Assembly: GCA_022360655.1 (NCBI GenBank)
Contig: JAKSCK010000116.1
Coordinates: forward strand, 20,162-84,161
Direction of reading: 5' to 3'
Origin: Spirochaetales bacterium
Lineage (GTDB): Bacteria > Spirochaetota > Spirochaetia > DSM-2461
Length of the DNA: 64,000 nucleotides
Notes under the pieces: model-generated
Database searches by the model: none
What the model saw: only the letters and a program-made list of their open reading frames with translations
Told to the model about the DNA's origin: nothing
Position numbers and translations under genes: made by a program
Part shown: positions 11,210-55,145 of the stretch, in pieces
How positions within the stretch are numbered: position 1 is the first letter of the stretch
Layout of the letters: every line of letters starts with the position of its first letter

Positions 11210-12312
11210 ACTCGCACCTCAGCAAGTCGTTGAACCGTGTCTTTCATGGCCGTCATTTGCTGCTCGATGGACTGGCATAAGGCCACCTGAGTGCGGCAAC
11301 GAACAAGATTGTGTTCTGGATAGGCCACTTTAAAATACTTGTTGCCTTCCAGATAATCCGTGAGAAAGCGAATCCCCACTTCCATGGTCATGAGTAAACC
11401 TCCTTCTGGCAGATGAAGGATTTCCTGCTCATTCATGAAGGCTCTCCCATTCTCTAAAAAGCCATCAGCTAAGGCCTTGAACATGGAGAAGTCCATGTTC
11501 ACCTCTTGGGGGTGGGGATGGTCTTCTGGAACAGGGCTGGTGGATGTTCGCACCAAGTCCCCAAAATCATAGAGTGATAAACCAGGCATGGATGTGTCCA
11601 AGTCAATCACACACAGTCCCTGATCCGTGGCATCATCAATCAGGATATTGTTGAGTTTGGTGTCATTGTGCACCACTCGTACTGGAAGCTCTCCCGCATC
11701 CCGTAGGCCCGTCAGGAGACGCACGGTTTGTTCATGGGAGCGGAAGTAATCCAATTCGGCGGCCACATCAGCTAATCGGCTAGCCGGTGCAGCTTGGGCC
11801 GCTTCCACTAGACGGGCATACCGGAGAGGTGTTTCATGGAAATTTTGAATGGTTTCCTTCAAAGGCCTTCCAGGAAGATCGGCCAGAAGGCGCTGATATT
11901 CGGCAAAACAACGGCCCGCTTCCCGGGCCTGCTGAGGATTTTGCACCACTTCATGGCCAGAAGCCCCTTCAATGAAGAGGTAGCAACGCCAGATTCCCCC
12001 TTCATCATCCTTCACCCAAGATTTTCCCTGTTTTGTTGGGACAAGGCTCAAAACACGACGGGATAAATCCGCCATACCTTCTGCTTTGGCTCGCTGTTGA
12101 AGGTGATGGCAGATGCGTTCCACATTTTCCATCAACTCTTGCGGCTGAGGAAACACATTCTCATTAATGCGTTGAAGCAAATAGGCCATGGGTCTACCGG
12201 CTTGATGACACACGACTCGATAGGTTTGATTGATATGACCATTTCCATAGGGAAGAGCTTCTTGGAAATCCCCATAGATGGCAAAGGAATCAATAAGTTC
12301 TTTAAAATCCAT
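11206..12312 (-). CDS. nahK: N-acetylhexosamine 1-kinase-like phosphotransferase (NahK/APH family)
   Basis: Start set to the ATG at 12312 (MDFKELIDSF), preceded by AAGGAG. Strong motif agreement with Bifidobacterium NahK as I remember it: YGNGHINQTY, VVHNDTKLNNILID, IDLDTSMPG, RFLTDYLEG, YPEHNLVRCRTQ. Confidence 0.8.
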   Translation of the reverse strand: MDFKELIDSFAIYGDFQEALPYGNGHINQTYRVVCHQAGRPMAYLLQRINENVFPQPQELMENVERICHHLQQRAKAEGMADLSRRVLSLVPTKQGKSWVKDDEGGIWRCYLFIEGASGHEVVQNPQQAREAGRCFAEYQRLLADLPGRPLKETIQNFHETPLRYARLVEAAQAAPASRLADVAAELDYFRSHEQTVRLLTGLRDAGELPVRVVHNDTKLNNILIDDATDQGLCVIDLDTSMPGLSLYDFGDLVRTSTSPVPEDHPHPQEVNMDFSMFKALADGFLENGRAFMNEQEILHLPEGGLLMTMEVGIRFLTDYLEGNKYFKVAYPEHNLVRCRTQVALCQSIEQQMTAMKDTVQRLAEVRV

Positions 12313-12461
12313 TTTTTCTCCTTTGAGCCTCATGCAAAACAGGCCTCTTGAAAAACTCAACATCAGGCAGAAAAACAAATCCTTACAAAAAAAGAAAATA
12401 TTATTTCCTGCTGCCAAATTGATTCCCATTATCCGGGTTCTTTCTGGCGTAAAAATCTCTA

Positions 12462-37508: not shown

Positions 37509-37531
37509 AATCTATCCTTCCAGATGTTCCC

Positions 37532-39481: not shown

Positions 39482-39491
39482 AGCAAAAGAG

Positions 39492-40877: not shown

Positions 40878-40900
40878 GATTTCCTCCAATTCTTCCGTCG

Positions 40901-40920
40901 TAGGTTTAACGTTAAACCTA
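40901..40920. promoter_or_regulatory. Perfect 20-bp palindrome, LacI-type operator O1
   Basis: taggtttaacgttaaaccta is identical to its reverse complement, with a central CG. Lies 24 nt upstream of the SBP start codon. Confidence 0.65.
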
Positions 40921-40954
40921 TGTTTCAAAAAAAATCGACAGACTTGTCGACGCA

Positions 40955-40974
40955 TAGGTTTAACGGTAAACTTC
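40955..40974. promoter_or_regulatory. Imperfect second copy of the operator, O2, overlapping a candidate lacI promoter
   Basis: taggtttaacggtaaacttc has 17 of 20 identical to O1; centres are 54 bp apart. Possible -35 ttgtcg (40945-40950) and -10 taaact (40968-40973) with a 17-nt spacer. Confidence 0.5.
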
Positions 40975-41037
40975 AAGTGTTTTACACCTGAGGAAACTGA
41001 ATTGTCAACAAAAAAAAAGCCCGGCACAGAACCCGCC

Positions 41038-42090
41038 ATGACCATCAAGGACATTGCTCGAATCTCTGGAGTCACTCCAACAACAGTCTCCAATGTGATC
41101 AACAAACGAACCAGTCGAGTCTCCTCTGTGACGGTTCAGAAAGTTCTCTCTGTCATTGAACAAACTGGTTACATCCCCAATCGAAATGCCCGGGCTCTTG
41201 CCAGCAAATCCACACGAATCATTGGTGTGATTTTCCCCAAGGTGGCCGAAGGCCTTCTCCAAGATCCCTTCCACTCTCAACTTCTCAGTGGAATTGAAGC
41301 CGAAATTCGCCGCTGTGATTACTACTTGATGATTCACTCCATCTCCTCTTATCGCGATTTATACAACCTGATGGGAAACTGGAATGTGGATGGCATCATT
41401 GTGCTGAGTCTCCTGGATAATGAATCCCTTTGCCCTCAACGCATGGAATCCATCCCAACCGTTTTTATTGATGCCTATGATGTCATTGGAACCTTTCCAA
41501 ACATTGGATCACAAGATTATGAAGGAGCAATGCTGGCCACCAATCACCTCATCCAACAAGGGCATTCGCGCATTGGATTCATTGGCTATGATTCGGTGAT
41601 CATCTCACGAGCTTCTGTCATTTCTCAACGCATCAAAGGCTTTACCCAAGCCCTAGAAGACGCCCACATACCCTATTCCCCAAACAAGGATATCTTCACC
41701 TGCGGGCATGTCAAAAAAGCGACAGGGGAGGAAAGAAGGTCTCTTTTATCGTTCATCAAACAGCATTCTGCGGTTTTTGTGAGTGCAGATATTCTGGCCG
41801 TTGAAATCATGAAAATCCTTCGAGAGGAAGGCATCAATATCCCCAACGATCTTTCCATCATTGGGTATGACAACCTTCCCGTCTCGGAGTTGGTGAGCCC
41901 AACCCTCTCCACCATTTCCCAAAATATCCCACAAAAAGGGGCATTGGCAGCGCAGCAGCTCATCATGCAGATTGAGGGAGAGACTCCAACCAGTCCAATC
42001 CCTCCCCTCTCCAATTCTCTTGTTCTACGGGAATCAGTGGCACAATTCCCTGGTGAAGAGCCTTCGCTTCATCATCCTCGACCTAAGTGA
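41038..42090 (+). CDS. LacI family transcriptional regulator
   Basis: Start reassigned to the ATG 41038 (MTIKDIARISGVTPTTVSNVINK...). 350 aa. The upstream part of the track ORF is antisense to the SBP gene. Confidence 0.9.
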   Translation: MTIKDIARISGVTPTTVSNVINKRTSRVSSVTVQKVLSVIEQTGYIPNRNARALASKSTRIIGVIFPKVAEGLLQDPFHSQLLSGIEAEIRRCDYYLMIHSISSYRDLYNLMGNWNVDGIIVLSLLDNESLCPQRMESIPTVFIDAYDVIGTFPNIGSQDYEGAMLATNHLIQQGHSRIGFIGYDSVIISRASVISQRIKGFTQALEDAHIPYSPNKDIFTCGHVKKATGEERRSLLSFIKQHSAVFVSADILAVEIMKILREEGINIPNDLSIIGYDNLPVSELVSPTLSTISQNIPQKGALAAQQLIMQIEGETPTSPIPPLSNSLVLRESVAQFPGEEPSLHHPRPK

Positions 42091-44633
42091 TAGAGAGTCC
42101 GAAGCTCAATTCCGTCTATCCATTCTTCCCCGTTTTCCATCGAGAGCTCCCTCTCCTCAGGGAGGAACTCCAGTTGTCTGCGACTCCCAGGAAGAAGATC
42201 AAAGCCATTGTCCTTAAATCGACCCCTCACCGGGGTGTTTAAGGTCACCGCAAAAGCAGGAGCCTGGCACTCCACTTCAACGGTCCATGGGGATGATCCA
42301 GGCCCCAGAGATATTTTTGGATCTTGGAATTCACAATCACGCGGCACGGTCAAAAACAAGGTGGATTGAATGGGCTCATGCCCCTCAGGTTCCCACTGTG
42401 CCAGAGCAAAAACATGGGTCAATTCCTCCGCCACGACATCATCCGCACTGGTACAAAAGAGCGGGGAAGTGAAGGTCTTTCGACCATCCTCCGAAGAGAG
42501 AGATTTCAATTCTTCAGAGAAAAAAGGTTGAGAACAGTTTGCAGGACAGCATGTGAGCCCCTTGTGATACACGCGTTTTTCTTGTCCATCAAAGCCAAGA
42601 ATTTTAACCGTGAGCTCTCCACGAACCTCATCCATCGTATCATTCAAACCATGAACATGAAGCTGTCCATCTTTCTTGTACACAGCCAATCCAACCGGTG
42701 CAAAGAACCGCTTTGCAGCATAATGAAGGAGCTTCCAAGTCCCGTCATATTCAATACTCGACCATGATGCCACTGGCCAAAGATCATTCAATTGCCAATA
42801 CAGAGCTCCCATGCTGATGGGACGTTGACTTCGCCAATACTCCACAGCAGTTCGTATGGCCCAGGCCTGCTGAACCTGACTCAGCCAAAGAAATTCATCA
42901 AAAGCTGTTGGCATATGAAAATACCGCGCCATTGTCGTCAAAATAATGGAATTTCCTGCTGGATTTTTCTGATGATGCCGCATCACCGTCGATGTTACAT
43001 TCCAATCCTTCTCTTGCGCAAAAGAAGCAATGGTGCGCATACCTGGAAAAGACTGAAAACCAAACTCACTGCAGAATCGGGGGGTGATGTCATAGTAAGA
43101 TTCAAAGGGCAATCCTCCATGCCACACACTCCAGTAGTGCATGTCACCTTTTGTGTCATCATGCCAGCAATCAGAGTAATCACCTTCTCCAGCCGATGGA
43201 GAGGAGGGCCACCAAGTGCGCTCAGGATCGAGCTCTCGCACAACCCGGCCAACAACACCCTCATTCAGTCGGTCATAGTCCACCAAGTATCGATCCCGAT
43301 TCGCCTTGGATTCGGGATACCATGTCAGTGCACCAAGATCCTCATTGTTTCCGCACCAAAGGGCAATGCAGGGATGGTGAGCAAGCCGTTTTATCTGATG
43401 CTCCACTTCAGCCTCAACTTCCGCCAAGAACTTGGGGTGAGCCGGATAAAGGGAGCAGGAAAACATCATGTCGTGCCAAACCAATAATCCCAATTCATCA
43501 CAGAGATCATAAAAAATATCTCGCTCAAACTGGCCACCGCCCCAGAGTCGGATCATATTCATATTGGCTTCAACCGCATCTTGGAGCAAACGTTCATACA
43601 CCTCTGGAGTTTGCTTTGCTGGCATGGCATCCACAGGAATCCAGTTGGCTCCCTTGGCAAAAATATCTCGTCCATTCACCCGGAAGAACATGCTTCTTCC
43701 AACATCATCGTCTTCCACCACCACATCCACGGTACGGTAGCCAAAACGGCGAGTATGGCTCTCTTGCTCTACCTCAACCTCTGCAGTGGAGAGAGGCTGG
43801 CCTCCATGGCCAGCAGGCCACCACAATTCAGGAGAAGAAACCTGAAAACAGCATTCCACCTGGTTCTGCCCAGGTTGGACAGAAAAACGAATCATTTTCT
43901 TTTGCTCATCTAAAGTAAACAAAAACTCAAGTTCTTTTTCCTGATAAGCGGTGTATTCACATTGCAGCACAACTTCCCAGTGTTTCCCATGAGATTGGGG
44001 CCTCACCCGAAGATAATCCACCTGGCCACTGCCCCCAAATGAAAGCGTAGGGGCTTCATACATCCCACCTGTTAAAAGCGTTGGACCCCAGTCCCACCCC
44101 CCATGACAGGCCACTTTACGAATGAGATTTCGATGATCCCAATCCCAGGGAAGCCATTTGGAGTGGGGGATGGGATAGGGCAATTGAGCGGCTTCTTGGG
44201 CCGCAGCCTGAACAGGTGAATGAATGATGACTTCCAATTGATTCATCCCCACCATCAGCGCGGATTCAACAGAAAAACGATGCCGACGAAACATGTTTTG
44301 GCATGTCCCAAGAGAGATTCCATTAAGAATGATCTCAGCCACAGTATCAAGAAACTCAAACGTAATGGTTGCCGGATTTCCAGACATCCATTGGGATTCT
44401 CGAATCTCAAATTCCGTTTTAAGACTCCAATCCGTGTGCCCCACCCAAACCCAATCCAGCTCATGCCGGTCTTTGTAAGGATGGGGAAGACACCCCGCAG
44501 CCAAAAGATCAGAAGCAATATCCCCCGGTACCGAGGCCTGAAGGCTGGAAGGAAGATGACGGGACTCCTCAGGCATTGAGGGGGATTCCACCGCATGGAG
44601 AGTCCAATGTGAATCAAGTCGTAAGGTTTGCAT
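42072..44633 (-). CDS. Glycoside hydrolase family 2, beta-mannosidase-like (exo-beta-glucosaminidase not excluded)
   Basis: 853 aa. GH2 clan-A motifs WCGNNE (acid/base region) and FCSEFGFQSFP (nucleophile region), HYWSVWHG. No signal peptide. Its 3' end overlaps the LacI 3' end by 19 nt. Confidence 0.82.
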   Translation of the reverse strand: MQTLRLDSHWTLHAVESPSMPEESRHLPSSLQASVPGDIASDLLAAGCLPHPYKDRHELDWVWVGHTDWSLKTEFEIRESQWMSGNPATITFEFLDTVAEIILNGISLGTCQNMFRRHRFSVESALMVGMNQLEVIIHSPVQAAAQEAAQLPYPIPHSKWLPWDWDHRNLIRKVACHGGWDWGPTLLTGGMYEAPTLSFGGSGQVDYLRVRPQSHGKHWEVVLQCEYTAYQEKELEFLFTLDEQKKMIRFSVQPGQNQVECCFQVSSPELWWPAGHGGQPLSTAEVEVEQESHTRRFGYRTVDVVVEDDDVGRSMFFRVNGRDIFAKGANWIPVDAMPAKQTPEVYERLLQDAVEANMNMIRLWGGGQFERDIFYDLCDELGLLVWHDMMFSCSLYPAHPKFLAEVEAEVEHQIKRLAHHPCIALWCGNNEDLGALTWYPESKANRDRYLVDYDRLNEGVVGRVVRELDPERTWWPSSPSAGEGDYSDCWHDDTKGDMHYWSVWHGGLPFESYYDITPRFCSEFGFQSFPGMRTIASFAQEKDWNVTSTVMRHHQKNPAGNSIILTTMARYFHMPTAFDEFLWLSQVQQAWAIRTAVEYWRSQRPISMGALYWQLNDLWPVASWSSIEYDGTWKLLHYAAKRFFAPVGLAVYKKDGQLHVHGLNDTMDEVRGELTVKILGFDGQEKRVYHKGLTCCPANCSQPFFSEELKSLSSEDGRKTFTSPLFCTSADDVVAEELTHVFALAQWEPEGHEPIQSTLFLTVPRDCEFQDPKISLGPGSSPWTVEVECQAPAFAVTLNTPVRGRFKDNGFDLLPGSRRQLEFLPEERELSMENGEEWIDGIELRTLYHLGRG

Positions 44634-44818
44634 TTTTCATCCTCGTATTCTTTCCATCTTCATTTTTCATTTCACCTTCAGAAGACGGGTTAGTTCTTTT
44701 TTCAAACCAAAATAATCTATATGAGCCATATATAAAAGAATAAAAAGTATTTAGTTGACATAATAAACCAACCCCAATTACTCTGTCGACAACAAACATC
44801 ATGAGATTCTAGAGGGCT

Positions 44819-46009
44819 ATGGCACAGATACGAAAACCACGAATGATTAACACCTCCCGCATTCTTCGAGGGCTTTGGCTCTCCAGGCGAGTGAGTCGTA
44901 TCGGCCTTTCTCGGGATTTAGGACTCAACAAATCCACCATCACCAACATTGTGAATGAGCTGATTGAAGGAGGACTTGTGCGAGAAGCCTCCGCCGGTGT
45001 AGCCGGACCTCAAGGAGGAAGAAAGCCCGTTCATATCGAATTGAATCCACAGTATGGATATGTTCTTGGTTTAGAGATTCGACCTGAATCCTACACGGCC
45101 GTTGCCGTTGATCTTGCTGGAGATATTCTTTTTTCTCGCACAGAACGGCTTGATAGCCATCTTGAGAATTTTCAAAACAATGCCGTGGAGCTACTTCATA
45201 AAATTCCTCAAGAACTTCAATGGCTCAGCATTCCCATACTTGGAGCTGGCATTGGGATTTCGGGCATTGTGGATACCAAACAGGGAACCATCCTAGGTTC
45301 CATTCCCTTGGGCATCACAAAGATGCTGCCCTTCACACAAGCCATCACATCGCAATTCGATTTTCCCATTTTCATTGAAAATGACGCCAACTGCTGTGCT
45401 TGGGGAGAATTGGCTTTTCACCGTACCCAAAAACTCAAAAACTTCATCTTCACCCTTGTCGAATTCCACGATAATGAACGCAAATACTTTTATGAAAATA
45501 CATCCGTTGGTTTTGGAATGGTTTTTAACGGAAATGTGTACAAGGGAAATCGCTTCTCAGCGGGAGAATTTCACAGTGTCTTCTGTCACCCAGAGGACAA
45601 AGGACAGTTCCGCATCTCCAATGCTCGGGAACGAATAGAAGAAGTTCCCGAACACCTTGAAGCACTGGTTGAGGAGCTTTGCAAGCATCTGGCGCTCTTT
45701 GTGAATACGTTCAACCTGGGGCAAATATTCCTTGGGGGCGACATTGAACGTCACCAAAACTTGGTCACCCCCATCCTCCTCAAGGCCATAGAACAGAACT
45801 GGGCCTATGACAGCCCTGTGGAATGTGAAATTCGCTTTTCCACCCTTGGTAATAAATCTGTGGCCTATGGAGCCGCAGGAATGGTTTTAGAACAACTCTT
45901 TGCCGATCCAGATTCCGCTACCGCTGCAGGCATCCACGCGATGGGTCAGCGCGGAACTTTACTTGGTTTCATTGATTCAGAAAAAAAGGGCTCAAAAGAG
46001 CTCTCATAA
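44819..46009 (+). CDS. ROK family transcriptional regulator (NagC/XylR-like)
   Basis: 396 aa. N-terminal wHTH (ISRIGLSRDLGLNKSTITNIVNELIEGGLV) plus a ROK sugar-kinase-like fold (ENDANCCAWGE). Confidence 0.88.
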   Translation: MAQIRKPRMINTSRILRGLWLSRRVSRIGLSRDLGLNKSTITNIVNELIEGGLVREASAGVAGPQGGRKPVHIELNPQYGYVLGLEIRPESYTAVAVDLAGDILFSRTERLDSHLENFQNNAVELLHKIPQELQWLSIPILGAGIGISGIVDTKQGTILGSIPLGITKMLPFTQAITSQFDFPIFIENDANCCAWGELAFHRTQKLKNFIFTLVEFHDNERKYFYENTSVGFGMVFNGNVYKGNRFSAGEFHSVFCHPEDKGQFRISNARERIEEVPEHLEALVEELCKHLALFVNTFNLGQIFLGGDIERHQNLVTPILLKAIEQNWAYDSPVECEIRFSTLGNKSVAYGAAGMVLEQLFADPDSATAAGIHAMGQRGTLLGFIDSEKKGSKELS

Positions 46010-46037
46010 TATCTCCCTAAGGGGAATGGAGGAAACA

Positions 46038-47321
46038 ATGAAAAAAGCGCTCGCATTTTTGTTTGTCTGCCTGGCGCTCACCGGCATGGCCTTTGCCAAT
46101 GGTGCCGATGAAAAAGGCGATTCTGAGCGAATCACCCTGAATGTGATGGGTTACGGCGATAACTCAAACCAAGAAGGAATCAGCTGGCGACGAATGGTCA
46201 CCACCTTCCAAGAAGAGAATCCCAACATCACCATTGTGGATGAGCTCTTGTATGACCAAGCCTACCATCAGAAGGTCACAGCCCGTCTTGCAGCAGGTGA
46301 TGCTCCTCACTTGGCCTACATGGGTGCCGATGCACGCTGGGGAGCTCCCTGGAAAGAAGCGGGAATGCAGATTGATAACCGCCCCTACATTGATACCAAT
46401 CTTTTTGACATGAATCTCATTCCTGAAATGGGCCCCAACGGTGAACGTTATTATCTTCCCATTGGAACCTCCAACATCACCACCGTTCTTTTCATGAATG
46501 AACCTCTTGTTCAATCTCTTGGATTCGCCGCCCCTGAAACCTATGCAGATTTGGTTGCCATGGTCCCCGCAGCCAAGGCTGCCGGACTTCAGGTTGTATC
46601 CATCGATGGGGCAGATGGATGGGCCTGGGGCTCCTGCCTCCTATCCGCCCTCATTGCTCGAACCTCTGGTGACACTCAATGGGTATCCAAAGCCGTTGCT
46701 GGTGAGAACGCCTTTGATGATGAGGCCATGGTGAAGGCTCTGGGCTTGATTGAAACCATGGTGGCTGACGGTGTTATTGATTCCAAGAATGTTCTGGTGG
46801 ACTACGGCTCCAACATCTCTGCTTTTTCCAATGAACAGGCTCTCTTCTTTGTTCAAGGTCAATGGGCCGCCGGTGGTGTGGAAAATACCGATGTTCGAAA
46901 TTCCATGAAACTCATGGCCTGGCCCACTCTTCCCGGACAGAAGAGTGGTATGGAAGGTTCAGTTGCTGCAGCATGGAGTGTTGGATACGGTCTCACAAAA
47001 CGAGCGGAAGATGACGGTGTGCAAGAGGCCGCTGCCAAGTTCCTGGCCTATGTGAATCGCGTGGAAGAATCCACTCAACGCCTGCGGGACGGAGCCATTG
47101 TGGCCCCTGTGAACAAGGGCTACGTGGTTCCTGATGACCTTCCTGTGGAAGTGGCTCAGAAAGTGGCTCTGGCTCAAAGCTCTCTGAACACAGAAGTGAT
47201 TGATGCCTTCCTGACCGGACCTCCCAACGACGCATTGAATGCCGGCATGCAGAAAATTGCTGCTGGTGAAGCAACCGCTGCTGAGGTTGCGGCTGAGGTG
47301 GAAGCCCTGGCTCGTCAGTAA
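46038..47321 (+). CDS. CUT1 sugar ABC transporter substrate-binding protein
   Basis: Start set to the ATG 46038, 5 nt after GGAGG. Signal peptide MKKALAFLFVCLALTGMAFA. 427 aa. Confidence 0.88.
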   Translation: MKKALAFLFVCLALTGMAFANGADEKGDSERITLNVMGYGDNSNQEGISWRRMVTTFQEENPNITIVDELLYDQAYHQKVTARLAAGDAPHLAYMGADARWGAPWKEAGMQIDNRPYIDTNLFDMNLIPEMGPNGERYYLPIGTSNITTVLFMNEPLVQSLGFAAPETYADLVAMVPAAKAAGLQVVSIDGADGWAWGSCLLSALIARTSGDTQWVSKAVAGENAFDDEAMVKALGLIETMVADGVIDSKNVLVDYGSNISAFSNEQALFFVQGQWAAGGVENTDVRNSMKLMAWPTLPGQKSGMEGSVAAAWSVGYGLTKRAEDDGVQEAAAKFLAYVNRVEESTQRLRDGAIVAPVNKGYVVPDDLPVEVAQKVALAQSSLNTEVIDAFLTGPPNDALNAGMQKIAAGEATAAEVAAEVEALARQ

Positions 47322-47330
47322 AAAGTACCA

Positions 47331-47362
47331 AGGGTGTCAGAGGTCTCTGGCACCCTTTTTTT
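47331..47362 (+). terminator. Rho-independent terminator/attenuator after the SBP gene
   Basis: agggtgtcaga-ggtc-tctggcaccct (11-bp stem with one G-U pair) followed by tttttt. Confidence 0.8.
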
Positions 47363-47437
47363 GTCAGAGACCTCATCGGCCCGCTCCAGAAACCTGTTTG
47401 GGAGCAGACCGATACGGCCTGTGGCCGAGGAGAACCC

Positions 47438-48352
47438 ATGAATCCACGTGACAAACGAAAATTGCTCGGCTATGCCGGGTTTATCGCTCCAGGATTGGCC
47501 ATCTATTTATTTATTGTGGCCTATCCTGTCATTTACTCCATAGGATTGAGTTTCACTGACTACAATCCAAATCGTGGAGGAGAATGGAGTTTTGTTGGCC
47601 TTCTCCAGTACAAAACCATGTTCTCTAATCCTATGTTCTGGCATTCCCTTAAAAACAACATGATTGTGGTAGCAGTGAGTGCCTTTGGCCAAATCCCCAT
47701 TGGATTTGCCTTGGCTTACATTTTGTACCGAGGACTTGTGAAAGGAAGGGATTTCTTTCAATCCATGGTATTTCTTCCCCAATTCCTTTCCCCTATTGTG
47801 ATTGGGATTCTCTTCCGAAAACTGGTTGGTGCCGATGGACCTGTTTCCCGCCTTCTTCAACTCATGAGTGGCGATCCTGGGAAACAATTCACCCTCATGC
47901 TCAAAAGTGGGACGGTTATGCTTCCCATAGCCTTTGCTCTCTTATGGATGTACACCGGTTTTTACATGGTGATCTTTCTGGCCAATCTGCAAAAAATTGA
48001 TTCCCATGTTATTGAAGCGGCCAAGATTGATGGGGCCAGTGAAACTCAAATATTTGGAAGGGTTATTGTTCCCATGCTTTCCGGAACCATTCTTGTCACA
48101 ACCATCCTGGCCATTGCCGGCTCCCTCAAGGGATTTGATCTGATTTTTGCCATCACCACAGAAGGACTCCAGCGAAACAACGCCATGGTACTTCCTATTT
48201 TCATGTATCAAACGGCATTCCAGGATTACACCAACACCATGCGCTTTGCCTTTGGATCTGCCATTTCCAATGCCATTGTGGTGATTTCTGTGGCCCTCAT
48301 TGGTGTGGCCAATGCCGTTGCCAAGCGCTTTAACGCAGGGGAGATTGGCTGA
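47438..48352 (+). CDS. Sugar ABC transporter permease (MalF-like)
   Basis: 304 aa, EAA loop (VIEAAKIDGASETQIF). Confidence 0.88.
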   Translation: MNPRDKRKLLGYAGFIAPGLAIYLFIVAYPVIYSIGLSFTDYNPNRGGEWSFVGLLQYKTMFSNPMFWHSLKNNMIVVAVSAFGQIPIGFALAYILYRGLVKGRDFFQSMVFLPQFLSPIVIGILFRKLVGADGPVSRLLQLMSGDPGKQFTLMLKSGTVMLPIAFALLWMYTGFYMVIFLANLQKIDSHVIEAAKIDGASETQIFGRVIVPMLSGTILVTTILAIAGSLKGFDLIFAITTEGLQRNNAMVLPIFMYQTAFQDYTNTMRFAFGSAISNAIVVISVALIGVANAVAKRFNAGEIG

Positions 48353-49449
48353 TGAAAACTCAAGAAAATCACAACTTCCGCGTTGGAACCATCCTCTCCT
48401 ACATCCTCTTTCTGGGATGGACCCTCCTCACCATCCTCCCTCTCTTCTGGATGGCCTACTCTTCCTTCAAATCCAATGAAGAACTCACCCGTGACATCTA
48501 TGCCTTTCCCAAAGATCTCTTTGAAAACGTGGATGATGAATATGTGGTCATTGCTCCCTCTTTGAATCTGATGATGCCGAAAGAGGTGCGTTCAGCCACC
48601 TCTGAATACCTCATCATTGAATCCACAAGCATTGCTCCTAATCGCCTTCTCATGGTGCATTACCTCCCCAAAAAAGACTTAGATCCTCATGTGGCCCAAA
48701 GAAAAACTGGGGACAAAATTTACGTCAATGAACTTCCTCGGCGACTCCAACGTCAGGTGAATCGCACCACAATCTGGTTCAATTACACCTCAGCCTTCCG
48801 ACGTGGTGCCCTGGGAGGAAAATTCCTCAACAGCATTCTTTATGCCAGTGTGTCCACATTCTTGATGGTGTTTTTCAGTCTCATGATTGGTTACGCTGTG
48901 AGTAAATTCCCCTTCAAGAAGCTCTCAGCTGTGGTGATGGGTTTGATTGGTGTGGGATATCTCATCAGCACCAATTCGGTCATCATCCCTCTCTTCCTCA
49001 TGCTCTCCAACCTGTCACTCACCGATACCCATGTTGGCATCATCTTGGTGTACACCGCCTTTGGTATTCCCATGTCGGTGCTCCTGGCCTCACAATTCAT
49101 ACGCGGCCTCCCCGACAGCCTCATTGAATCCGCGGAAATTGATGGTGCTGGAATGTTCCGAGCCTTTCGAAGCATCATCATTCCCATGACGGTTCCCGTC
49201 ATCATTACCATCTCCATCATCAATGCCCTGGGAATCTGGAATGAATTCCTGTTGGTTCTGGTCCTGGCCAGCAAGGAAATCACCAAATCTTTGCCTGTGG
49301 GTGTGTACTCATTCTCCAGTCTCACCAGCACTCAACTGGGATGGCAATTAGCCGCCTTGGTGATTGCCACCCTTCCCACCATGCTGGTGTACTTCTCCTT
49401 CAATAGGAGAATCACACGAGGCGTGGTGGCAGGAGCTGTAAAAGGTTAA
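48352..49449 (+). CDS. Sugar ABC transporter permease (MalG-like with a ~100-aa periplasmic insertion)
   Basis: 365 aa. TGATG overlap with the upstream permease. EAA loop (LIESAEIDGAGMFRAF). Confidence 0.88.
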   Translation: MKTQENHNFRVGTILSYILFLGWTLLTILPLFWMAYSSFKSNEELTRDIYAFPKDLFENVDDEYVVIAPSLNLMMPKEVRSATSEYLIIESTSIAPNRLLMVHYLPKKDLDPHVAQRKTGDKIYVNELPRRLQRQVNRTTIWFNYTSAFRRGALGGKFLNSILYASVSTFLMVFFSLMIGYAVSKFPFKKLSAVVMGLIGVGYLISTNSVIIPLFLMLSNLSLTDTHVGIILVYTAFGIPMSVLLASQFIRGLPDSLIESAEIDGAGMFRAFRSIIIPMTVPVIITISIINALGIWNEFLLVLVLASKEITKSLPVGVYSFSSLTSTQLGWQLAALVIATLPTMLVYFSFNRRITRGVVAGAVKG

Positions 49450-49614
49450 GCATTTCCGGCCCCCCGCAGGGGTCGGATTACACCACCCCGATTTGTCCAT
49501 GGACTCACCTCACAGAGTGATGCAAAGATGGTAAGTGCGGAGGCTTCTCCTTGCTGCCTCAAAGAAGGGCAAACCAAGGAAGACTCCACTGGAACACATT
49601 CACAGGAGTCCCAT

Positions 49615-50796
49615 ATGTTGAAGGGTAACGCCCTCGTCGGCCAGTCCGGCGGCCCCACCAGCGTCATCAATTCCAGCCTTCAAGGCGTCATTCAAGCCGC
49701 GAAAGCTTCTTCTGTCATTGAGACAGTTTATGGAATGAAATTCGGAATCGACGGCTTCATGGCTGATCAGTTGTGGAATCTCAGCACCCAAAGTGATGCC
49801 GTGGTGGCAGGATTGTCCTCCACCCCCTCATCCGCTCTTGGCTCCTCCCGTTACAAACTCAAAGATGCAGACCTCCCTGCCGTGCGGGATGCCTTGGAGC
49901 GCCATAATATTCGCTATTTCTTCCTCATTGGTGGAAATGACACCATGGATACCGTCCATCGTGTGGAAGCCTACTGCCGAGAAAATGGGTATGAGCTACG
50001 CGGCATTGGCATTCCCAAAACCGTGGACAATGACCTCTTTGGCACAGACCATACCCCCGGCTATCCCTCTGCTGCTCGCTACAATGCCCTTTGTGTTCAG
50101 CAGTCTGGCCGATTAGCCCGGGACATGCGAAAAGTGGATTCTTTTGTGGTGTATCAAACCATTGGGCGTGATGCCGGTTGGCTTGCCGCTGCCACGGCCC
50201 TGGCCAGAAAAGAAGAGGGAGACGCCCCCCACCTCATCTACTGCCCCGAACGCCCCTTTGATAAAGAAGCGTTCTTAGAAGATGCCCAGGCCTGCATCAA
50301 AAAGCATGGCTTTGTCAGTGTGGTGGTGAGTGAAGGCCTCAAATATGCCGATGGCACTCCCGTAAGTGCCTCAGGAACCCAAGATAAATTTGGCAACACC
50401 GAATACGGTGCCATGGGTGGTTCCAGTGTGGGCCTCAATGTCCACAAGATTCTGGCCGAAGCCACCGGCCTCCGGGGAGAATTCCAAATCACCGAATCCC
50501 TTCCCATGTGTGCCATTGACCGGGCCGAAGCTGCGGACATTGAACGTGCCAATGGTTGTGGAAAAGAAGCCGTACGCCTGGCGGAAGCTGGAGAAACCGG
50601 CTTCATGGTCACCATTGATCGCACAGATTCTGGCTTCACCTACGGCAAAGCCCCCCTCTCCTCTGTGGCCGTGCGTGCCAAAGAAATGCCCGAAGAAATG
50701 ATCAACGACCGGGGAAATGACATCACCGAAGCCTTCATGGACTACATCCGTCCCTTGGTCACCCCCCTTCCTGAATACGTGAGTTTGGAGGCCTAG
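49615..50796 (+). CDS. PfkA-family phosphofructokinase paralog with PPi-type active-site residues
   Basis: Start at the ATG 49615 after CAGGAG. GQSGGPTSVIN, IGGNDT (Asp at the position that is Gly in ATP-PFKs) and IPKTVDND (Lys at the position that is Gly in ATP-PFKs). Confidence 0.8.
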   Translation: MLKGNALVGQSGGPTSVINSSLQGVIQAAKASSVIETVYGMKFGIDGFMADQLWNLSTQSDAVVAGLSSTPSSALGSSRYKLKDADLPAVRDALERHNIRYFFLIGGNDTMDTVHRVEAYCRENGYELRGIGIPKTVDNDLFGTDHTPGYPSAARYNALCVQQSGRLARDMRKVDSFVVYQTIGRDAGWLAAATALARKEEGDAPHLIYCPERPFDKEAFLEDAQACIKKHGFVSVVVSEGLKYADGTPVSASGTQDKFGNTEYGAMGGSSVGLNVHKILAEATGLRGEFQITESLPMCAIDRAEAADIERANGCGKEAVRLAEAGETGFMVTIDRTDSGFTYGKAPLSSVAVRAKEMPEEMINDRGNDITEAFMDYIRPLVTPLPEYVSLEA

Positions 50797-50797
50797 A

Positions 50798-51580
50798 ATG
50801 AGTCGTTTTGCCAAAAATCTGCTCATCATCCAGGCCCATCCTGATGATGCTGAGGCCTGGAGTGCCGGAACCCTCTCCCTTCTGAAGGACAAAGGCTGGA
50901 CCATCACCATTGCCTCCCTCACCGCTGGCAACATGGGTGGCGTGGGCATGAGTGAAGAAGAAACCGTGGCCACCCGCGTGGAAGAAGCCAAGGCTGCCGC
51001 CGCCGCCCTGGGCGCTAACTTCCACTGTTTTATGCGTCGGGATGCCTATCTTTTTGACAGCGAAGAACTCCGCATTGAAGTGGTGTCCTTGATTCGCAAG
51101 GTCAAAGCTGGTGTGGTGATTACCCATGCCCCCTTTGATTACCATCAAGACCACCGCACCACCTGCCAGGTGGTGGATGCTGCTGCCATTGTGTCCTCCC
51201 TCCCCAATGTTCCCAGCCCGGAACCTCCCCTGGACATCACTCCTTTGCTTTACCATGGCATGCCCATGAGCCTTTCTGACCCATTGGGAAATCCTGTCCC
51301 GGAACCCCACTTTTTTGTGGACATTTCTGGGAAGCCCATGGAAAAGAAAATGGAAATGCTCACCCACCATAAAACCCAGCAGGATTTGATGCGCCTCATG
51401 CACAAAATGGACGACTTCTTTGGGGAAATGCGCATCTTCAACGCCGAACTCGGCGCCATGGTGGGATGTGCAGAAGCCGAATGCTACTGGCAGCATCTTG
51501 GGGGGGGGTACCAAAAAGATCCTCTGCTCCAAGAGGAACTGGCCCCCTACATTCGCCACAGAGAAGAAAACCAGAAATAG
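50798..51580 (+). CDS. PIG-L/LmbE family de-N-acetylase
   Basis: 260 aa. AHPDD motif (LLIIQAHPDDAEAW) and HxDH motif (DYHQDHRTT). The ATG is 1 nt after the PFK stop. Confidence 0.85.
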   Translation: MSRFAKNLLIIQAHPDDAEAWSAGTLSLLKDKGWTITIASLTAGNMGGVGMSEEETVATRVEEAKAAAAALGANFHCFMRRDAYLFDSEELRIEVVSLIRKVKAGVVITHAPFDYHQDHRTTCQVVDAAAIVSSLPNVPSPEPPLDITPLLYHGMPMSLSDPLGNPVPEPHFFVDISGKPMEKKMEMLTHHKTQQDLMRLMHKMDDFFGEMRIFNAELGAMVGCAEAECYWQHLGGGYQKDPLLQEELAPYIRHREENQK

Positions 51581-51586
51581 ATTGTG

Positions 51587-51624
51587 GAACCATTTCATCC
51601 CGGCAGAGGCCCATGGAATGGTTC
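51587..51624 (+). terminator. Hairpin directly after the PIG-L gene
   Basis: gaaccatttcat (51587-51598) / atggaatggttc (51613-51624), 12-bp stem with one G-U pair. No U-tract. Confidence 0.4.
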
Positions 51625-51844
51625 TCATCACAGATTGGACCAAAAAAGCAGTCGCTGAGGAACATCCTCACCTTGCTTCTTCTTTTTTCCACTCTGTCCT
51701 AGACTAGGAAGCACCAAGAATCCTGCTCATCCAACAAAGATTCTTGGATCAGAACTTTTGGCCCAATCCCATCCCAAAGGATGAATCCGGCCAATGGAGG
51801 ATTGGAACCTTCGTCAGACCAAGGTTCCCAACATAGGAGATCTC

Positions 51845-52852
51845 ATGAACAATACCGACGCCAAATACACCCGTTTTGCCCTCTGTAAAGAGATGCTGGA
51901 AACCCCCGATGTGATGCGCAACTTCAATGCCGAATCCGTAGCCCCCCTGGCTGCCCTGGTCAAAGATGCCTCCAAAATCATGCTCACCGGAGAAGGGTCC
52001 AGCCGCATCTTCCCCGCCAAACGCGCCATTGTGGAAGCCCTGCGCCAGGGTCTCACGGCTCCTGTCACCGAAGGCGCCACCCAGGCCATGGAATATAGAC
52101 TCAGTGACTATGGCATCCTTGGCGCTTCCAACTCCGGACGCACACGGGAACTGGTTCGCCTCTTCCGCAAACTCCGAGAAGAAGGCCATAAACAGTTGGC
52201 CGGCCTCTGTGCCCACCCCAACACCCCCTTAGAAGAGGCCTCTGACGCCTACATGGTTCTGGGTTGCGGTAATGAAGAAGCCGTGGCCGCCACCAAGAGC
52301 GTAGCCGAGCAGGCCATGGCCTGGCAGACCCTCTTTGCCTCCCTCAATGGCCAGGAACTCCCCCCCGTGGAACAGGGAGCCGCCGCTGTGCAGCAAGCCC
52401 TCACCGTGGACGTTCCTGAAGAATTCAGCAGCGCCATGGCCAATGCCCGCACCATCTTCTTTGCCGGACGCAATGACGGCGTGGCCGAAGAACTCACCCT
52501 CAAAACCAATGAGATTGTCCGCAAAACCTCCGATTTCCTCGAAGGCACCTATGTGGCCCACGGAATTGAGGAAATCATGCGGGAAGATGACGTCATCATT
52601 CTGGTGAACCCCTTCCCCGAAGAAGAAGAGAAGATTCGCGAGTGTGTGGCTCAAGGTGTTGGCGCCAAAGTCTTTGCCATTGCCTCACGTGACACCCTCT
52701 TCCCCACCCTTCGCGTCCCCGAAGCGGGAGAATGGAATGAATACGTCCTCCTGGCCGCCGGTTGGAACCTCCTGGTAGAAGCCGGAATTGCCGCCGGAAT
52801 TGACCTGGACAAACCCGAACGCGCCCGTAAAGTCGGTAACGAAGTCGACTAA
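51845..52852 (+). CDS. Double-SIS-domain sugar-phosphate isomerase/deaminase-like protein (GlmS isomerase-domain, GlmD/AgaS/FrlB type)
   Basis: Start at the ATG 51845, 4 nt after AGGAGA. SIS motifs (IMLTGEGSSRIF, GASNSGRTRE, EEAVAATKS). 335 aa and no glutaminase domain. Confidence 0.8.
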   Translation: MNNTDAKYTRFALCKEMLETPDVMRNFNAESVAPLAALVKDASKIMLTGEGSSRIFPAKRAIVEALRQGLTAPVTEGATQAMEYRLSDYGILGASNSGRTRELVRLFRKLREEGHKQLAGLCAHPNTPLEEASDAYMVLGCGNEEAVAATKSVAEQAMAWQTLFASLNGQELPPVEQGAAAVQQALTVDVPEEFSSAMANARTIFFAGRNDGVAEELTLKTNEIVRKTSDFLEGTYVAHGIEEIMREDDVIILVNPFPEEEEKIRECVAQGVGAKVFAIASRDTLFPTLRVPEAGEWNEYVLLAAGWNLLVEAGIAAGIDLDKPERARKVGNEVD

Positions 52853-52892
52853 ACCATAATCTCCAGAATCCTCTCTTGTTGATTTTGGAGAA

Positions 52893-52911
52893 GCCCCGCC
52901 TCTGGCGGGGC
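52893..52911 (+). terminator. GC hairpin after the SIS gene
   Basis: gccccgcc-tct-ggcggggc, a perfect 8-bp stem 41 nt after the stop. No U-tract. Confidence 0.4.
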
Positions 52912-53046
52912 CGGGCTATCCGGGGCTCCGGCTCTCGCCTTCGGCCCCGCATGCGCGGGTCCCCTGCGGGCCCCTCCTATCCCTCTTCCACACCTCTTTT
53001 CCCACCATGGGTGACCTGGGCACCAGAGCACCGTTATACTTCCCCC

Positions 53047-55116
53047 ATGAGTGAATTGCGCCTGCGCCCCTTGGATAGACTCGGCTTTGATTTTGTTCCT
53101 CCCCTCAGCGGTCATGAATCTCCCTCCGATCCCCCCCTTCCTGGCCGCCCGCTCACCCCCGAGGAAATCCACATCTTAGAGAAGCAAGGAAACCAGGCCG
53201 ATGACTGGAGCCACCTGCGTGTTCGAGAGGGTTTTTCCCCAAAACGTGTCCAAAACTGCCAATTCTACGGCATGGTGAGCCTGGGTGCCCTCTCTCCTTC
53301 CTACCTGGAATTCCATGACCTTCGCCTTCCCGTCGGCCTCTCCAACTGCACCATTGTGTCCAGCATCCTGGGGGACAACGTGGCTCTCCACAACCTAGGT
53401 TTTCTCTCCCGTTTTGAGATTGGAAATCGCTGCATCCTGTTCAACATTGATGAAATGATCACCACCGACCATGCCAAATTTGGCAACGGCGTGGTGATGG
53501 ATGGTGAGGATGAAGAGGTGCGCATCTGGCTGGAATTGGCCAATGAAAATGGGGGCCGCAAAGTGCTACCCTTTGATGGGATGCTCCCTGCTGATGCCTG
53601 GATTTGGTCCAAGTACCGGGGAGATGAGACACTCATGAACCGCTTTGTGGCCATGACCAATGCGCAACATTCCAGCACCCGAGGGAAACGCGGCCGCATC
53701 GCCAATGACGTTGTCATCAAAGATTGCCGCATCCTCAAAGATGTGCGGATTGGCCAACGGGCCTATGTGAAGGGATGCAACAAGCTCAAAAACCTCACCG
53801 TGAACAGCGATGCTCAACGCCCCACCCAGTTGGGAGAAGGTTGTGAATTGGTGAATGGCATTGTGGGCTATGGTTGCCGCATTTTTTACGGTGTGAAAGC
53901 CGTACGATTCATCCTGGGCGACCATGCCAACCTCAAATACGGAGCCCGACTCATCAACTCTATTCTTGGATCCAATTCCACCATCAGTTGCTGTGAAGTG
54001 CTCAACTCCCTCATCTTTGGCTCCCATGAACAGCACCACAACTCCTCCTTTCTTTGCGCCACCGTTCTGCAGGGACAAAGCAACATGGCCTCCGCCGCCA
54101 CCGTGGGCTCCAATCACAATTCCCGATCCAATGATGGAGAAATTGTGGCCAACAGAGGCTTCTGGCCAGGCCTGAGCGTGAGTCTCAAACACAACTCCCG
54201 CTTTGCCGCCTACTGCCTGGTGGCCAAAGGAGCCTACCCGGCCGAATTGGATGTGCAGCTTCCTTTCTCCTTGGTCTCCAACAGTCCTGATTCTTCGGAA
54301 TTGGTGCTCATGCCTGGATACTGGTTCCGCCACAACATGTATGCCTTGGCCCGCAATTCGGCCAAAGCCAGGGCTCGAGATGCGCGGCTGATTCGCCACC
54401 AAGAGCTGGAATACCACTGGCTGGCTCCAGACACCGTAGACCAAATGCGAAGAGCCCGCCGGCTCTTGGAAGAGTGGTGCCCCCAAGGCAAAGAATTTCT
54501 TGAAACTCAAGAGATGGAGGCCATCACGCTTTCCGGAGAAAGATGGGTGGAGAACTCCACCCGACCGGTGCGCATACTGCGCGCCGGAAGAGGCTGGCAG
54601 GATTACGGCCGCCTCATTCGCTACTATGCCGTCACCACCCTCGCAGAAGCATCTGGTGCTCCTGACAGCCCTTCTTCAACATCCCCTTGGATCAACTTGG
54701 GTGGGCAATTGGTGAGAGAACACGATTTATCGCAATTGATGGACGATGTTCGCCAGGAGCGTCTGAGCACCTGGGAGGATGTTCATCATCGTTACCAGGA
54801 GCTGGGAAAGAACTACTCCAAGGCCAAAGAGGCCCATGCTCGCCGCATTCTTTGGGAGGAAGTTCCAGAAAGTCAGGGGCTGCTCACCAAGGATCTTCTC
54901 GAGGAAGCTCTTCATACTGCGGCATTCTTGCACAATGGAATTCGAGAAAGTCGAATGAAGGATGATGTGAATCCCTTTCGGCACATCACCTTTGATGATG
55001 AGGCTGAAAAAGATGCCGTATTGGGCACTCTGAAAGACAACCCCTTCCTTGAAGAAGCAGAACGGGATTATCAACGCACCAAAAACATTCTGGAAAACGG
55101 TTTCAAAACACTCTAA
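53047..55116 (+). CDS. DUF4954-like large uncharacterised protein with beta-helix-like repeats
   Basis: 689 aa from the ATG 53047 (an alternative in-frame ATG at 52951 lies inside the GC-rich leader). The N-terminal LTPEEIHILEKQGNQADDWSHLRV resembles the conserved DUF4954 N-terminus as I recall it. The central region has short repeats of hydrophobic-x-x-x-x-hydrophobic periodicity. Confidence 0.6.
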   Translation: MSELRLRPLDRLGFDFVPPLSGHESPSDPPLPGRPLTPEEIHILEKQGNQADDWSHLRVREGFSPKRVQNCQFYGMVSLGALSPSYLEFHDLRLPVGLSNCTIVSSILGDNVALHNLGFLSRFEIGNRCILFNIDEMITTDHAKFGNGVVMDGEDEEVRIWLELANENGGRKVLPFDGMLPADAWIWSKYRGDETLMNRFVAMTNAQHSSTRGKRGRIANDVVIKDCRILKDVRIGQRAYVKGCNKLKNLTVNSDAQRPTQLGEGCELVNGIVGYGCRIFYGVKAVRFILGDHANLKYGARLINSILGSNSTISCCEVLNSLIFGSHEQHHNSSFLCATVLQGQSNMASAATVGSNHNSRSNDGEIVANRGFWPGLSVSLKHNSRFAAYCLVAKGAYPAELDVQLPFSLVSNSPDSSELVLMPGYWFRHNMYALARNSAKARARDARLIRHQELEYHWLAPDTVDQMRRARRLLEEWCPQGKEFLETQEMEAITLSGERWVENSTRPVRILRAGRGWQDYGRLIRYYAVTTLAEASGAPDSPSSTSPWINLGGQLVREHDLSQLMDDVRQERLSTWEDVHHRYQELGKNYSKAKEAHARRILWEEVPESQGLLTKDLLEEALHTAAFLHNGIRESRMKDDVNPFRHITFDDEAEKDAVLGTLKDNPFLEEAERDYQRTKNILENGFKTL

Positions 55117-55125
55117 ATCGAAAAT

Positions 55126-55145
55126 CCCCGGCGCAAGCGCCGGGG
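55126..55145. terminator. Bidirectional GC hairpin between convergent genes
   Basis: ccccggcg-caag-cgccgggg, a perfect 8-bp stem. An A-run upstream gives a U-tract for the minus-strand ClC transcript. Confidence 0.65.

Follow-up and report, generated by a model that had tools for sequence, protein, structure and literature searches.

Gene organization of the locus

The gene row described here lies at positions 44819 to 55116 of a 64,000-nucleotide stretch of DNA from a Spirochaetales bacterium, the whole of which is referred to below as the window. The row is a sugar-import locus arranged around a widely conserved unit of three genes (the trio), which encode a protein of the phosphofructokinase family (PFK-like), a PIG-L deacetylase and a double-SIS protein. 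The genome contexts of homologues of the DUF4954, SIS and PFK-like proteins were compared, and the window proteins were mapped onto these loci, which are designated by an L and a number. A preliminary description, made from the sequence of the window, had listed eight open reading frames (ORFs) in this row, with gaps of 28 nucleotides (nt) between the ROK gene and the binding-protein gene and of 1 nt between the PFK stop codon and the PIG-L ATG. The eight ORFs, their coordinates and both gaps were verified, the gene starts agree with those of orthologues, and all the family labels were borne out by Pfam and NCBIfam profile searches. The genes, given with their ATP-binding cassette (ABC) importer and pyrophosphate (PPi) assignments, are as follows:

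44819..46009, plus strand: ROK-family transcription regulator, NagC/Mlc-like (ROK domain and N-terminal MarR-type helix-turn-helix, MarR_2/MarR)
46038..47321, plus strand: secreted solute-binding protein of a CUT1-type sugar ABC importer (SBP_bac_1; signal peptide MKKALAFLFVCLALTGMAFA)
47438..48352, plus strand: ABC permease 1 (BPD_transp_1; the L082 copy is 81% identical)
48352..49449, plus strand: ABC permease 2 (BPD_transp_1; the L082 copy is 71% identical)
49615..50796, plus strand: PfkA-family PPi-type kinase with an altered acceptor site, trio gene 1 (PF00365, PRK14072)
50798..51580, plus strand: PIG-L/LmbE (CE14) zinc de-N-acetylase, trio gene 2 (PF02585)
51845..52852, plus strand: double-SIS, GlmS-isomerase-like sugar-phosphate deaminase/isomerase, trio gene 3 (two SIS stretches in Pfam)
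53047..55116, plus strand: DUF4954 protein, left-handed beta-helix with a helical C-terminal DUF6819 domain (PF16314)

Longer ORFs enclose the genes at 46038-47321 (TTG start), 49615-50796 (ATG at 49528), 51845-52852 (from 51794) and 53047-55116 (TTG at 52876). The spacer between the PIG-L and SIS genes (51581-51844) is 264 nt long, compared with approximately 15-50 nt in most relatives. It holds no notable ORF and only a weak hairpin at 51656-51670, and could be the leftover of an insertion or deletion.

Conservation of the three-gene unit

The conserved core of the row is the PFK-like/PIG-L/SIS trio, and not the full set of eight genes. The order and spacing of the trio are repeated in at least nine independent contigs from two phyla. 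The full trio, in the same order and with tiny gaps, is present in the window and in L081, L082, L092, L093 and L094, and PIG-L and SIS are visible in L090 and L095, whose contexts end upstream. L082 has the whole arrangement of the window, with a glycoside hydrolase (GH) of family 20, a hexosaminidase, added between permease and trio. In L103 the trio follows a ROK gene, a binding-protein gene and two permease genes, with DUF4954 elsewhere in that genome; in L104, from a Bacteroidetes metagenome-assembled genome (MAG), it lies among genes for two ROK kinases, for a GH92 alpha-mannosidase and for CBM9_2; and in L105 (Spirochaeta isovalerica) a NagC-like ROK gene precedes it. The fact that 16 contigs of identical size, including contigs of 3.6, 7.1 and 7.8 kb, occur in both top-120 match lists, for SIS and for PFK, indicates that the two genes are on the same contigs. 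Gene-neighbourhood analysis had been proposed in the preliminary description as a check on whether the DUF4954 gene is recurrently linked with those for PIG-L, SIS and PFK. The co-localization of PFK, PIG-L and SIS proved to be strongly conserved, and DUF4954 to be linked with them only within one small clade.

A CBM9_2 gene adjoins the trio at L103 (10142-10735, a spirochaete) and at L104 (6163-6813, a Bacteroidetes), and P0444, a protein of 632 residues from a Spirochaetales MAG, is a trio-type PFK-like kinase that carries CBM9_2 as an N-terminal fusion. The only solved relative of this family, PDB 4jpq, is uncharacterised. CBM9_2 may be a fourth component of the unit, for example a sugar-binding or anomer-handling helper.

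The PFK-like protein

In the public record the first gene of the trio is named "diphosphate--fructose-6-phosphate 1-phosphotransferase". Its product scores 151 bits against PF00365 (cut-off 30.9) and 405 bits against the PPi-PFK model PRK14072 (cut-off 273), and is approximately 50% identical over the full length to the PPi-PFKs of PDB entries 3k2q and 3hno. Residues were numbered and aligned against E. coli PfkA (sequence of PDB 1pfk) and these two canonical PPi-PFKs. The catalytic base D127 is retained, together with T125, R171 and E222, and so is the PPi-donor signature, D104 and K124. The motifs GGNDT, PKTVDNDL, IGR and SEG are present and are invariant in 120 homologues.

The acceptor site, in contrast, departs from that of a phosphofructokinase. 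R243 and R252, which in the structure and mutants of E. coli PfkA bind the 6-phosphate of fructose 6-phosphate (Fru-6-P), are replaced by E and M; H/Y249 is replaced by S, M169 by I and E167 by Q. The replacements of R243, R252, M169 and E167 are invariant in all 120 of the closest homologues. Among approximately 130 family representatives from an exhaustive search, this pattern is found only in the small clade of the query, and the rest keep the two arginines and the methionine (of about 120 other representatives, 83% keep R243, 91% R252 and 88% M169). No conserved basic residue that could compensate for the loss was found when 60 clade members were compared with 122 others, and the clade also has an insertion of 5-7 residues. 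R162 was considered as a third lost phosphate ligand and was dropped, given that the PRK14072 family varies at this position and is hard to align there with certainty.

These replacements, together with the catalytic residues that are kept, mean that the acceptor pocket has gone from basic to acidic or neutral with the phosphoryl-transfer machinery intact. Since E, M, S and I take the place of the 6-phosphate-site residues throughout the clade, the protein is not filed here as a Fru-6-P kinase, and the phosphorylation of a ketose 6-phosphate, which had been ascribed to it in the preliminary description, appears unlikely. The same description had noted the absence of a sugar kinase and, separately, the presence of a PFK paralog; these are probably two sides of one gene. 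Given that the SIS protein needs a phosphorylated substrate and that the row contains no other kinase, we infer that the PFK-like protein supplies the "missing" sugar-kinase activity and acts on a free hexosamine, either glucosamine (GlcN) or N-acetylglucosamine (GlcNAc). Indirect support comes from the CBM9_2 family, which in P0444 forms one protein with the trio-type kinase and which, in the window, is encoded beside NahK, a kinase of free GlcNAc and N-acetylgalactosamine (GalNAc).

The PIG-L and SIS proteins

The product of the second gene belongs to the PIG-L family (PF02585, 89.5 bits against a cut-off of 28.2). The motifs AHPDD and HxDH, noted in the preliminary description, are both present in the translation, the latter as HQDH, and align with the diacetylchitobiose deacetylase Dac. 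The best PDB matches are the Thermococcales diacetylchitobiose deacetylases 8bgn, 3we7 and 3wl4 (E-values of 3e-14 to 2e-13, only 56 bits). Against the profile of the bacillithiol deacetylase BshB1 (TIGR04001) the protein reaches 94 bits, which is below the cut-off of 182.5.

For the SIS protein the best PDB matches are the NagB-II GlcN 6-phosphate (GlcN-6-P) deaminase (8eol/3hba), the GlmS isomerase domain and Pyrococcus PH0510. When it is aligned with the C-terminal halves of GlmS, for which the reference residues were VA(S/A)TK, E481/K485/E488, H504 and K603, the S-x-SG-x-T phosphate loop, VAATKS, E..LK..E, HG and the C-terminal lysine are all found, so that catalytic residues are retained in all three enzymes of the trio. 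The protein belongs to a separate large subfamily with more than 5500 matches, including Planctomycetota and Bacteroidales. The kinship of the PIG-L protein with Dac and the GlmS-type catalytic residues of the SIS protein uphold the earlier view of the row as an amino-sugar locus, and a Pfam and NCBIfam scan agrees with it in finding no NagA, NagB or NagK gene in the row.

The DUF4954 gene

The last gene of the row matches PF16314 with 188 bits (cut-off 26.2) over profile positions 2-431 of 433, followed by DUF6819. It is separated from the trio by two features:

52853..53010, plus strand: structured GC-rich spacer between trio and DUF4954, including the hairpin GCCCCGCCUCUGGCGGGGC (RNA fold of -79.4 kcal/mol, z -3.7)
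53011..53040, plus strand: promoter-like site of DUF4954 (GTGACC, 18 nt, TATACT), the local form of a conserved TTGACATATTCC-N17-GGTATAAT

The TTGACATATTCC-N17-GGTATAAT element lies 8-10 nt before ATGAGT and is kept with or without an upstream trio (alignment A3, 11 loci, 70-125 nt before the start). In the window its -35 hexamer is degraded to GTGACC. Given that the element ends so close to the ATG, the DUF4954 mRNA may be leaderless or nearly so.

DUF4954 stands alone in L083, L084, L086, L087 and L089; in L083 and L086 the SIS protein of the trio is encoded on the same multi-megabase contig, more than 9 kb away. In L092 two genes for PIN-domain toxins (8675-9070, minus strand, and 9593-9961, plus strand) lie between SIS and DUF4954, and in L094 the two are separated by a spacer of 1 kb. 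The trios of L103, L104 and L105 have no DUF4954 gene next to them, and a set of 80 genome loci contained no DUF4954 gene beside PFK, PIG-L or SIS. The backbone of a GFO/IDH/MocA gene (minus strand), DUF4954 and a ClC gene (minus strand), with an RNase II gene further on, occurs both with and without the sugar genes, which appear to have been inserted 5' of a DUF4954 gene that was already resident there. As judged from these contexts and from the promoter element, DUF4954 appears to be a neighbour with its own promoter and not a member of the catabolic module in which the preliminary description had placed it.

The family is very large (more than 8000 matches) and strongly conserved: Spirochaetes and Chitinophagaceae sequences share 48% identity, and H, N, S, R, K, E and D residues are invariant at many positions. 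Even Treponema pallidum has a member (PMC6953169). In Bacteroidota its context is of another kind. Of the 63 loci with sufficient flanking sequence, 53 have a full-length glmS directly 5' of DUF4954 and in the same orientation; the median gap is about 40 nt (range -3 to about 270). These loci are within L002-L080, for example L003 (8160-9995 and 10001-12226), and the pair is also found in L088 (6160-10253) and L102 (8127-12112).

AlphaFold2 models of DUF4954 were built from 20 and from 117 sequences (m259f5619339c, m265664e25d2e). With 117 sequences, the model has a mean predicted local distance difference test score (pLDDT) of 84 and a predicted template-modelling score (pTM) of 0.87, and shows a left-handed beta-helix (LbH) that carries inserts, with a helical domain at the C-terminus. 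The most conserved motifs, HEQHHNSS and GSNHNSR, are confident in this model and were below pLDDT 50 in the model from 20 sequences. The latter (pLDDT 69) gave 17 GlmU structures as top matches, which were lost with 117 sequences, and this GlmU ranking is therefore regarded as not robust: the Foldseek search of the pLDDT 84 model gave no match below E 1e-3, and the matches were only generic LbH proteins, namely acyltransferases, gamma-carbonic anhydrases and eIF2B-epsilon. The vanished GlmU matches are a reason for caution with fold searches that use weak models. No match at E <= 1 was obtained with the DUF4954 profile against PDB sequences.

In the searched literature DUF4954 has only passing mentions, in two papers, with no account of its function, and no description of the glmS-DUF4954 gene pair was found there. 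In 30 of 45 Bacteroidetes genera, GlmU lacks the acetyltransferase domain (PMC4358021). Given this gap and the pairing with glmS, DUF4954 may be the missing hexosamine-phosphate N-acetyltransferase of Bacteroidetes; it is a reasonable candidate, and we offer it as a lead and not as a result. The pairing makes it a concrete and testable candidate for GlcN-phosphate acetylation in those Bacteroidetes whose GlmU is a uridyltransferase only (PMC4358021).

Regulator, importer and other genes of the window

The remaining features of the locus and the genes of the window that bear on amino-sugar use are:

44634..44818, no strand assigned: putative control region between the divergent GH2 and ROK genes, containing TTGACATAATAAACCAAC, which L082 also has, and at 44718 the 6-3-6 palindrome TATATGAGCCATATA
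42072..44633, minus strand: GH2 beta-mannosidase, divergent from the ROK gene (Pfam Glyco_hydro_2_N2, Ig_mannosidase; no signal peptide)
47330..47357, plus strand: 12-bp hairpin and T-run 3' of the binding-protein gene, attenuator- or terminator-like
55126..55145, no strand assigned: perfect 8-bp GC hairpin, terminator-like, between the convergent DUF4954 and ClC channel genes
11206..12429, minus strand: NahK-like N-acetylhexosamine 1-kinase (APH family; PDB 4wh1/4ocj, E 3e-80), 5' of the CBM9_2 gene and in the same orientation
10236..10826, minus strand: CBM9_2 (PF16011) protein, of the family found beside the trio in L103 and L104 and, in P0444, as a fusion with a trio-type kinase

The first protein of the row has a winged helix-turn-helix and a ROK domain whose ATP/phosphate-1 motif is degenerate (LGLEIRPES in place of DxGxT), as in a transcription regulator. 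Its best NCBIfam matches are Mlc and NagC at 70 bits, both equivalog cut-offs being missed by far. For these reasons (the helix-turn-helix, the degenerate motif and the Mlc/NagC-like matches) it was rejected as the missing kinase. The divergent GH2-ROK arrangement is also present in L082. No riboswitch or other known RNA was found in the spacers, and the only Rfam match in the whole window is one tRNA.

The GH2 protein matches best the BtMan2A structures 2je8/2vjx (E 1e-149). Its N-terminus, MQTLRLDSHW, is without a signal peptide, which indicates a cytoplasmic enzyme. An exo-beta-glucosaminidase, which would have completed a route of the Thermococcus type, was considered for this gene and rejected, given that CsxA scores 46 bits and beta-mannosidases 500.

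The importer consists of the SBP_bac_1 binding protein and two BPD_transp_1 permeases. The binding protein has weak NCBIfam matches to CPR_0540-type and NgcE binding proteins for chitobiose/GlcNAc, and the hairpin at 47330-47357 could raise its transcript above that of the permeases. The row has no ABC ATPase gene, and the one ABC_tran ORF among those scanned in the window (6073-7719) is near a gene for an OpuAC-type binding protein. The importer had been described as ATPase-less in the preliminary description; such a lack is ordinary for CUT1-type sugar importers. It is also ordinary in this genome, given that the window has two more sugar ABC importer sets without an ATPase (30370-33902, plus strand, and 35103-41105, minus strand). 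Genes for a LacI regulator and a GH4 glycosidase (26502-28924) adjoin one of these sets, and the other has a GH31 glycosidase. A mechanically called LacI ORF (40651-42090, plus strand) overlaps a binding-protein ORF (39492-41105, minus strand); its LacI domain begins at residue 131, so that the true start is further in.

A GFO/IDH/MocA gene is also found upstream of the locus, together with GH31, GH4 and LacI regulator genes. Downstream are the genes for the convergent ClC channel and for RNase II, and the window closes within a gene for a hybrid sensor kinase, of which it has the end. A hexokinase within the window was considered and rejected, as the ORF at the end of the window is the Hpt end of this sensor kinase. 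In relatives, a hexokinase of eukaryotic type (L083, 21772-22094; L087, 13054-14424) follows the RNase II gene and, in L083, also sensor kinase genes; by synteny, the copy of this organism would be just past position 64000. An AraC-type regulator gene (12599-13621) is divergent from the NahK-like/CBM9_2 pair, and the content of this pair suggests a separate branch of GlcNAc/GalNAc 1-phosphate salvage in the same organism.

Proposed pathway and its alternatives

The reading that we favour, to which we give an even chance, is that the locus serves the ROK-repressor-controlled uptake and breakdown of a small GlcNAc-containing glycoside by the trio, with DUF4954 separate. As judged from the neighbouring genes, namely the importer, the cytoplasmic beta-mannosidase, the GH20 of L082 and the GH92 of L104, the likeliest substrates would be Man-beta-1,4-GlcNAc (Man, mannose) or chitobiose-type fragments of N-glycans or chitin. 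The glycoside would be imported by the binding protein and the two permeases, with an ATPase that is assumed to be shared and encoded elsewhere. In the cytoplasm, the GH2 beta-mannosidase would free GlcNAc, and in one relative a GH20 hexosaminidase could do so as well. PIG-L would then deacetylate GlcNAc to GlcN, the PfkA-family enzyme would phosphorylate this free hexosamine to GlcN-6-P, probably with PPi as the donor, and the double-SIS protein would deaminate and isomerise GlcN-6-P to Fru-6-P and NH3. It is possible that the first two steps of the trio take place in the reversed order. By converting GlcNAc to Fru-6-P, the trio would be a non-orthologous replacement of NagK, NagA and NagB. 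DUF4954, in the same scheme, would be a separately transcribed housekeeping gene that is downstream by chance in this lineage. The wider proposal, that a PPi-type clade of the PfkA family was rebuilt into a free-hexosamine kinase and forms, with PIG-L and a GlmS-like deaminase, a self-sufficient GlcNAc module without NagK, NagA and NagB in Spirochaetota, Bacteroidota and Planctomycetota, is put forward tentatively, as a possibility that falls short of even.

Several observations weigh against this reading. The identity of the substrate is read solely from neighbouring glycosidases. A separate kinase is at hand in some genomes, with two true ROK sugar kinases beside the trio in L104 and a hexokinase about 10 kb off in the spirochaete relatives, and in L085 PIG-L and SIS occur without a PFK-like gene nearby. 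The PFK-like protein passes the NCBI model for PPi-PFKs with its 405 bits, and another mode of Fru-6-P binding is possible. PIG-L scores slightly better on the BshB1 profile than on any catabolic one, and the SIS protein misses the equivalog cut-offs of both GlmD (NF041128, 34 bits against 580) and NagB-II (NF046059, 32 against 430).

The main alternative, which is the scheme of the preliminary description, has a genuine PPi-phosphofructokinase in the trio. GlcNAc would be deacetylated, GlcN would be phosphorylated by a hexokinase or ROK kinase encoded elsewhere, SIS would make Fru-6-P or tagatose 6-phosphate (Tag-6-P), and PFK would make the 1,6-bisphosphate from it. The PRK14072 score, the likeness to the structural-genomics structures 3k2q and 3hno and the retention of all catalytic and donor residues are as expected of such an enzyme, as are the syntenic hexokinases of L083 and L087, the ROK kinases that flank the trio of L104 and the Fru-6-P expected from the SIS step. 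On the other hand, E and M replace R243 and R252 in the whole trio-linked clade at positions that 83-91% of the other representatives keep, M169 and E167 are changed as well without a new basic residue, and there is no obvious reason for a glycolytic housekeeping enzyme to be tied to PIG-L, here by a gap of 1 nt, across two phyla. For Tag-6-P, an aldolase of the tagatose route would also be expected, and none is present among the scanned genes of the row and its surroundings. Taken together, we consider a genuine phosphofructokinase rather unlikely. A change of substrate is a different matter: the N-acetylated compound could be GalNAc, N-acetylmannosamine, a GlcNAc conjugate of the bacillithiol/mycothiol type or an N-acetylated Amadori compound/fructosamine with an FrlB-like SIS protein. 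BshB1 is the best NCBIfam match of PIG-L, the SIS protein is too divergent for a GlmD, NagB-II or AgaS label, and the NahK-like kinase of the window accepts both GlcNAc and GalNAc. The BshB1 score is, however, well under the cut-off, no glycosyltransferase or ligase of thiol biosynthesis was found nearby among the scanned genes of the window, and the SIS profile matches are GlmS, GlmD and NagB-II and not FrlB or AgaS. The beta-mannosidase, GH20, GH92 and sugar importers fit N-glycan or chitin fragments. Another substrate seems very improbable.

The remaining alternative concerns DUF4954, which could be a pathway member that is co-transcribed with SIS and might act on GlcN-phosphate where catabolism and UDP-GlcNAc synthesis diverge. 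It adjoins PIG-L/SIS in approximately 9 of 13 close relatives, with gaps down to 64 nt; independently, 53 of 63 Bacteroidota loci have it directly 3' of full-length glmS, whose isomerase fold is the same; and its LbH fold resembles that of sugar N-acyltransferases. Against membership, it is alone in sister genomes whose trio is elsewhere, toxin genes (L092) or a 1-kb spacer (L094) can come between it and SIS, its promoter is conserved whatever is upstream, it is missing beside the trio in L103, L104 and L105, and all the spirochaete adjacencies may stem from a single insertion event. These facts make membership improbable.

The interpretation given in the preliminary description is thus supported in part. 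If the reading of the PFK-like protein as a free-hexosamine kinase is true, the trio is a third bacterial GlcNAc route, built wholly from families other than those of NagK, NagA and NagB, and it contains what is, to our knowledge, the first PfkA-fold enzyme that phosphorylates a phosphate-free sugar, possibly with PPi. Given that the gene is annotated as a PPi-PFK, metabolic reconstructions of Spirochaetes, Bacteroidota and Planctomycetes may count a false glycolytic enzyme and miss an amino-sugar pathway. In the searched literature, nothing relevant was found on the PFK/PIG-L/SIS combination, on a PPi-dependent glucosamine or hexosamine kinase, or on a GlcN-phosphate acetyltransferase of Bacteroidetes.

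Comparison with known systems

With the short PPi-PFKs of the PRK14072 type (3k2q, 3hno) the trio kinase shares the motifs GGxD[ST], PKTVDNDL, GR and SEG and approximately 50% identity, and it differs from them in having E, M, I and Q at positions 243, 252, 169 and 167 and an insertion of 5-7 residues, changes that are clade-specific and invariant. As in the glmS-DUF4954 pair of Bacteroidota, DUF4954 of the window comes directly after a GlmS-type isomerase-domain gene on the same strand. In the window, however, the gene before DUF4954 encodes a SIS deaminase that has no glutaminase part and belongs to a catabolic trio, and the adjacency varies among sister genomes.

The preliminary description had stated that the row matches neither the Aga route nor that of Thermococcus, and this holds for both. 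In the Aga/Gam route of E. coli, the SIS deaminase AgaS is followed by PfkA acting on Tag-6-P. The pairing of a SIS amino-sugar-6-phosphate deaminase with a PfkA-type kinase is the same in the trio, but an AgaS profile match, a tagatose-bisphosphate aldolase, a phosphotransferase system and NagA/AgaA are all missing, and the trio kinase is without the arginines for 6-phosphate binding that the reaction with Tag-6-P would also need.

The chitinolytic route of Thermococcales consists of the diacetylchitobiose deacetylase Dac, the exo-beta-glucosaminidase GlmA, an ADP-dependent sugar kinase and the GlcN-6-P deaminase GlmD. Dac and GlmA of this route are mentioned in PMC9779004. The trio would follow the same logic, in that deacetylation by a PIG-L/CE14 enzyme comes first, phosphorylation of the amino sugar second and deamination by a double-SIS protein third, without NagA or NagB. 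Dac is the nearest solved relative of the window PIG-L, and the GlmD homologue PH0510 is among the SIS matches. In contrast with the archaeal route, the trio is bacterial, with its three genes in a fixed operon; there is no exo-beta-glucosaminidase, the GH2 enzyme of the window being a beta-mannosidase; the candidate kinase is of the PfkA-family PPi type and not an ADP-dependent glucokinase; and the SIS protein stays at 34 bits against the GlmD cut-off of 580.

With the NagK/NagA/NagB pathway the trio would share the net conversion of GlcNAc to Fru-6-P, acetate and NH3 by one kinase, one deacetylase and one deaminase, as well as a NagC-like ROK regulator. The nearest solved relative of the window SIS protein is the SIS-type deaminase of the Shewanella NagB-II variant (PDB 8eol/3hba), although its score of 32 bits is far from the NagB-II cut-off of 430. 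The trio differs from this pathway in that its enzymes all come from other families, and in that the likely order is deacetylation followed by phosphorylation and not the reverse.

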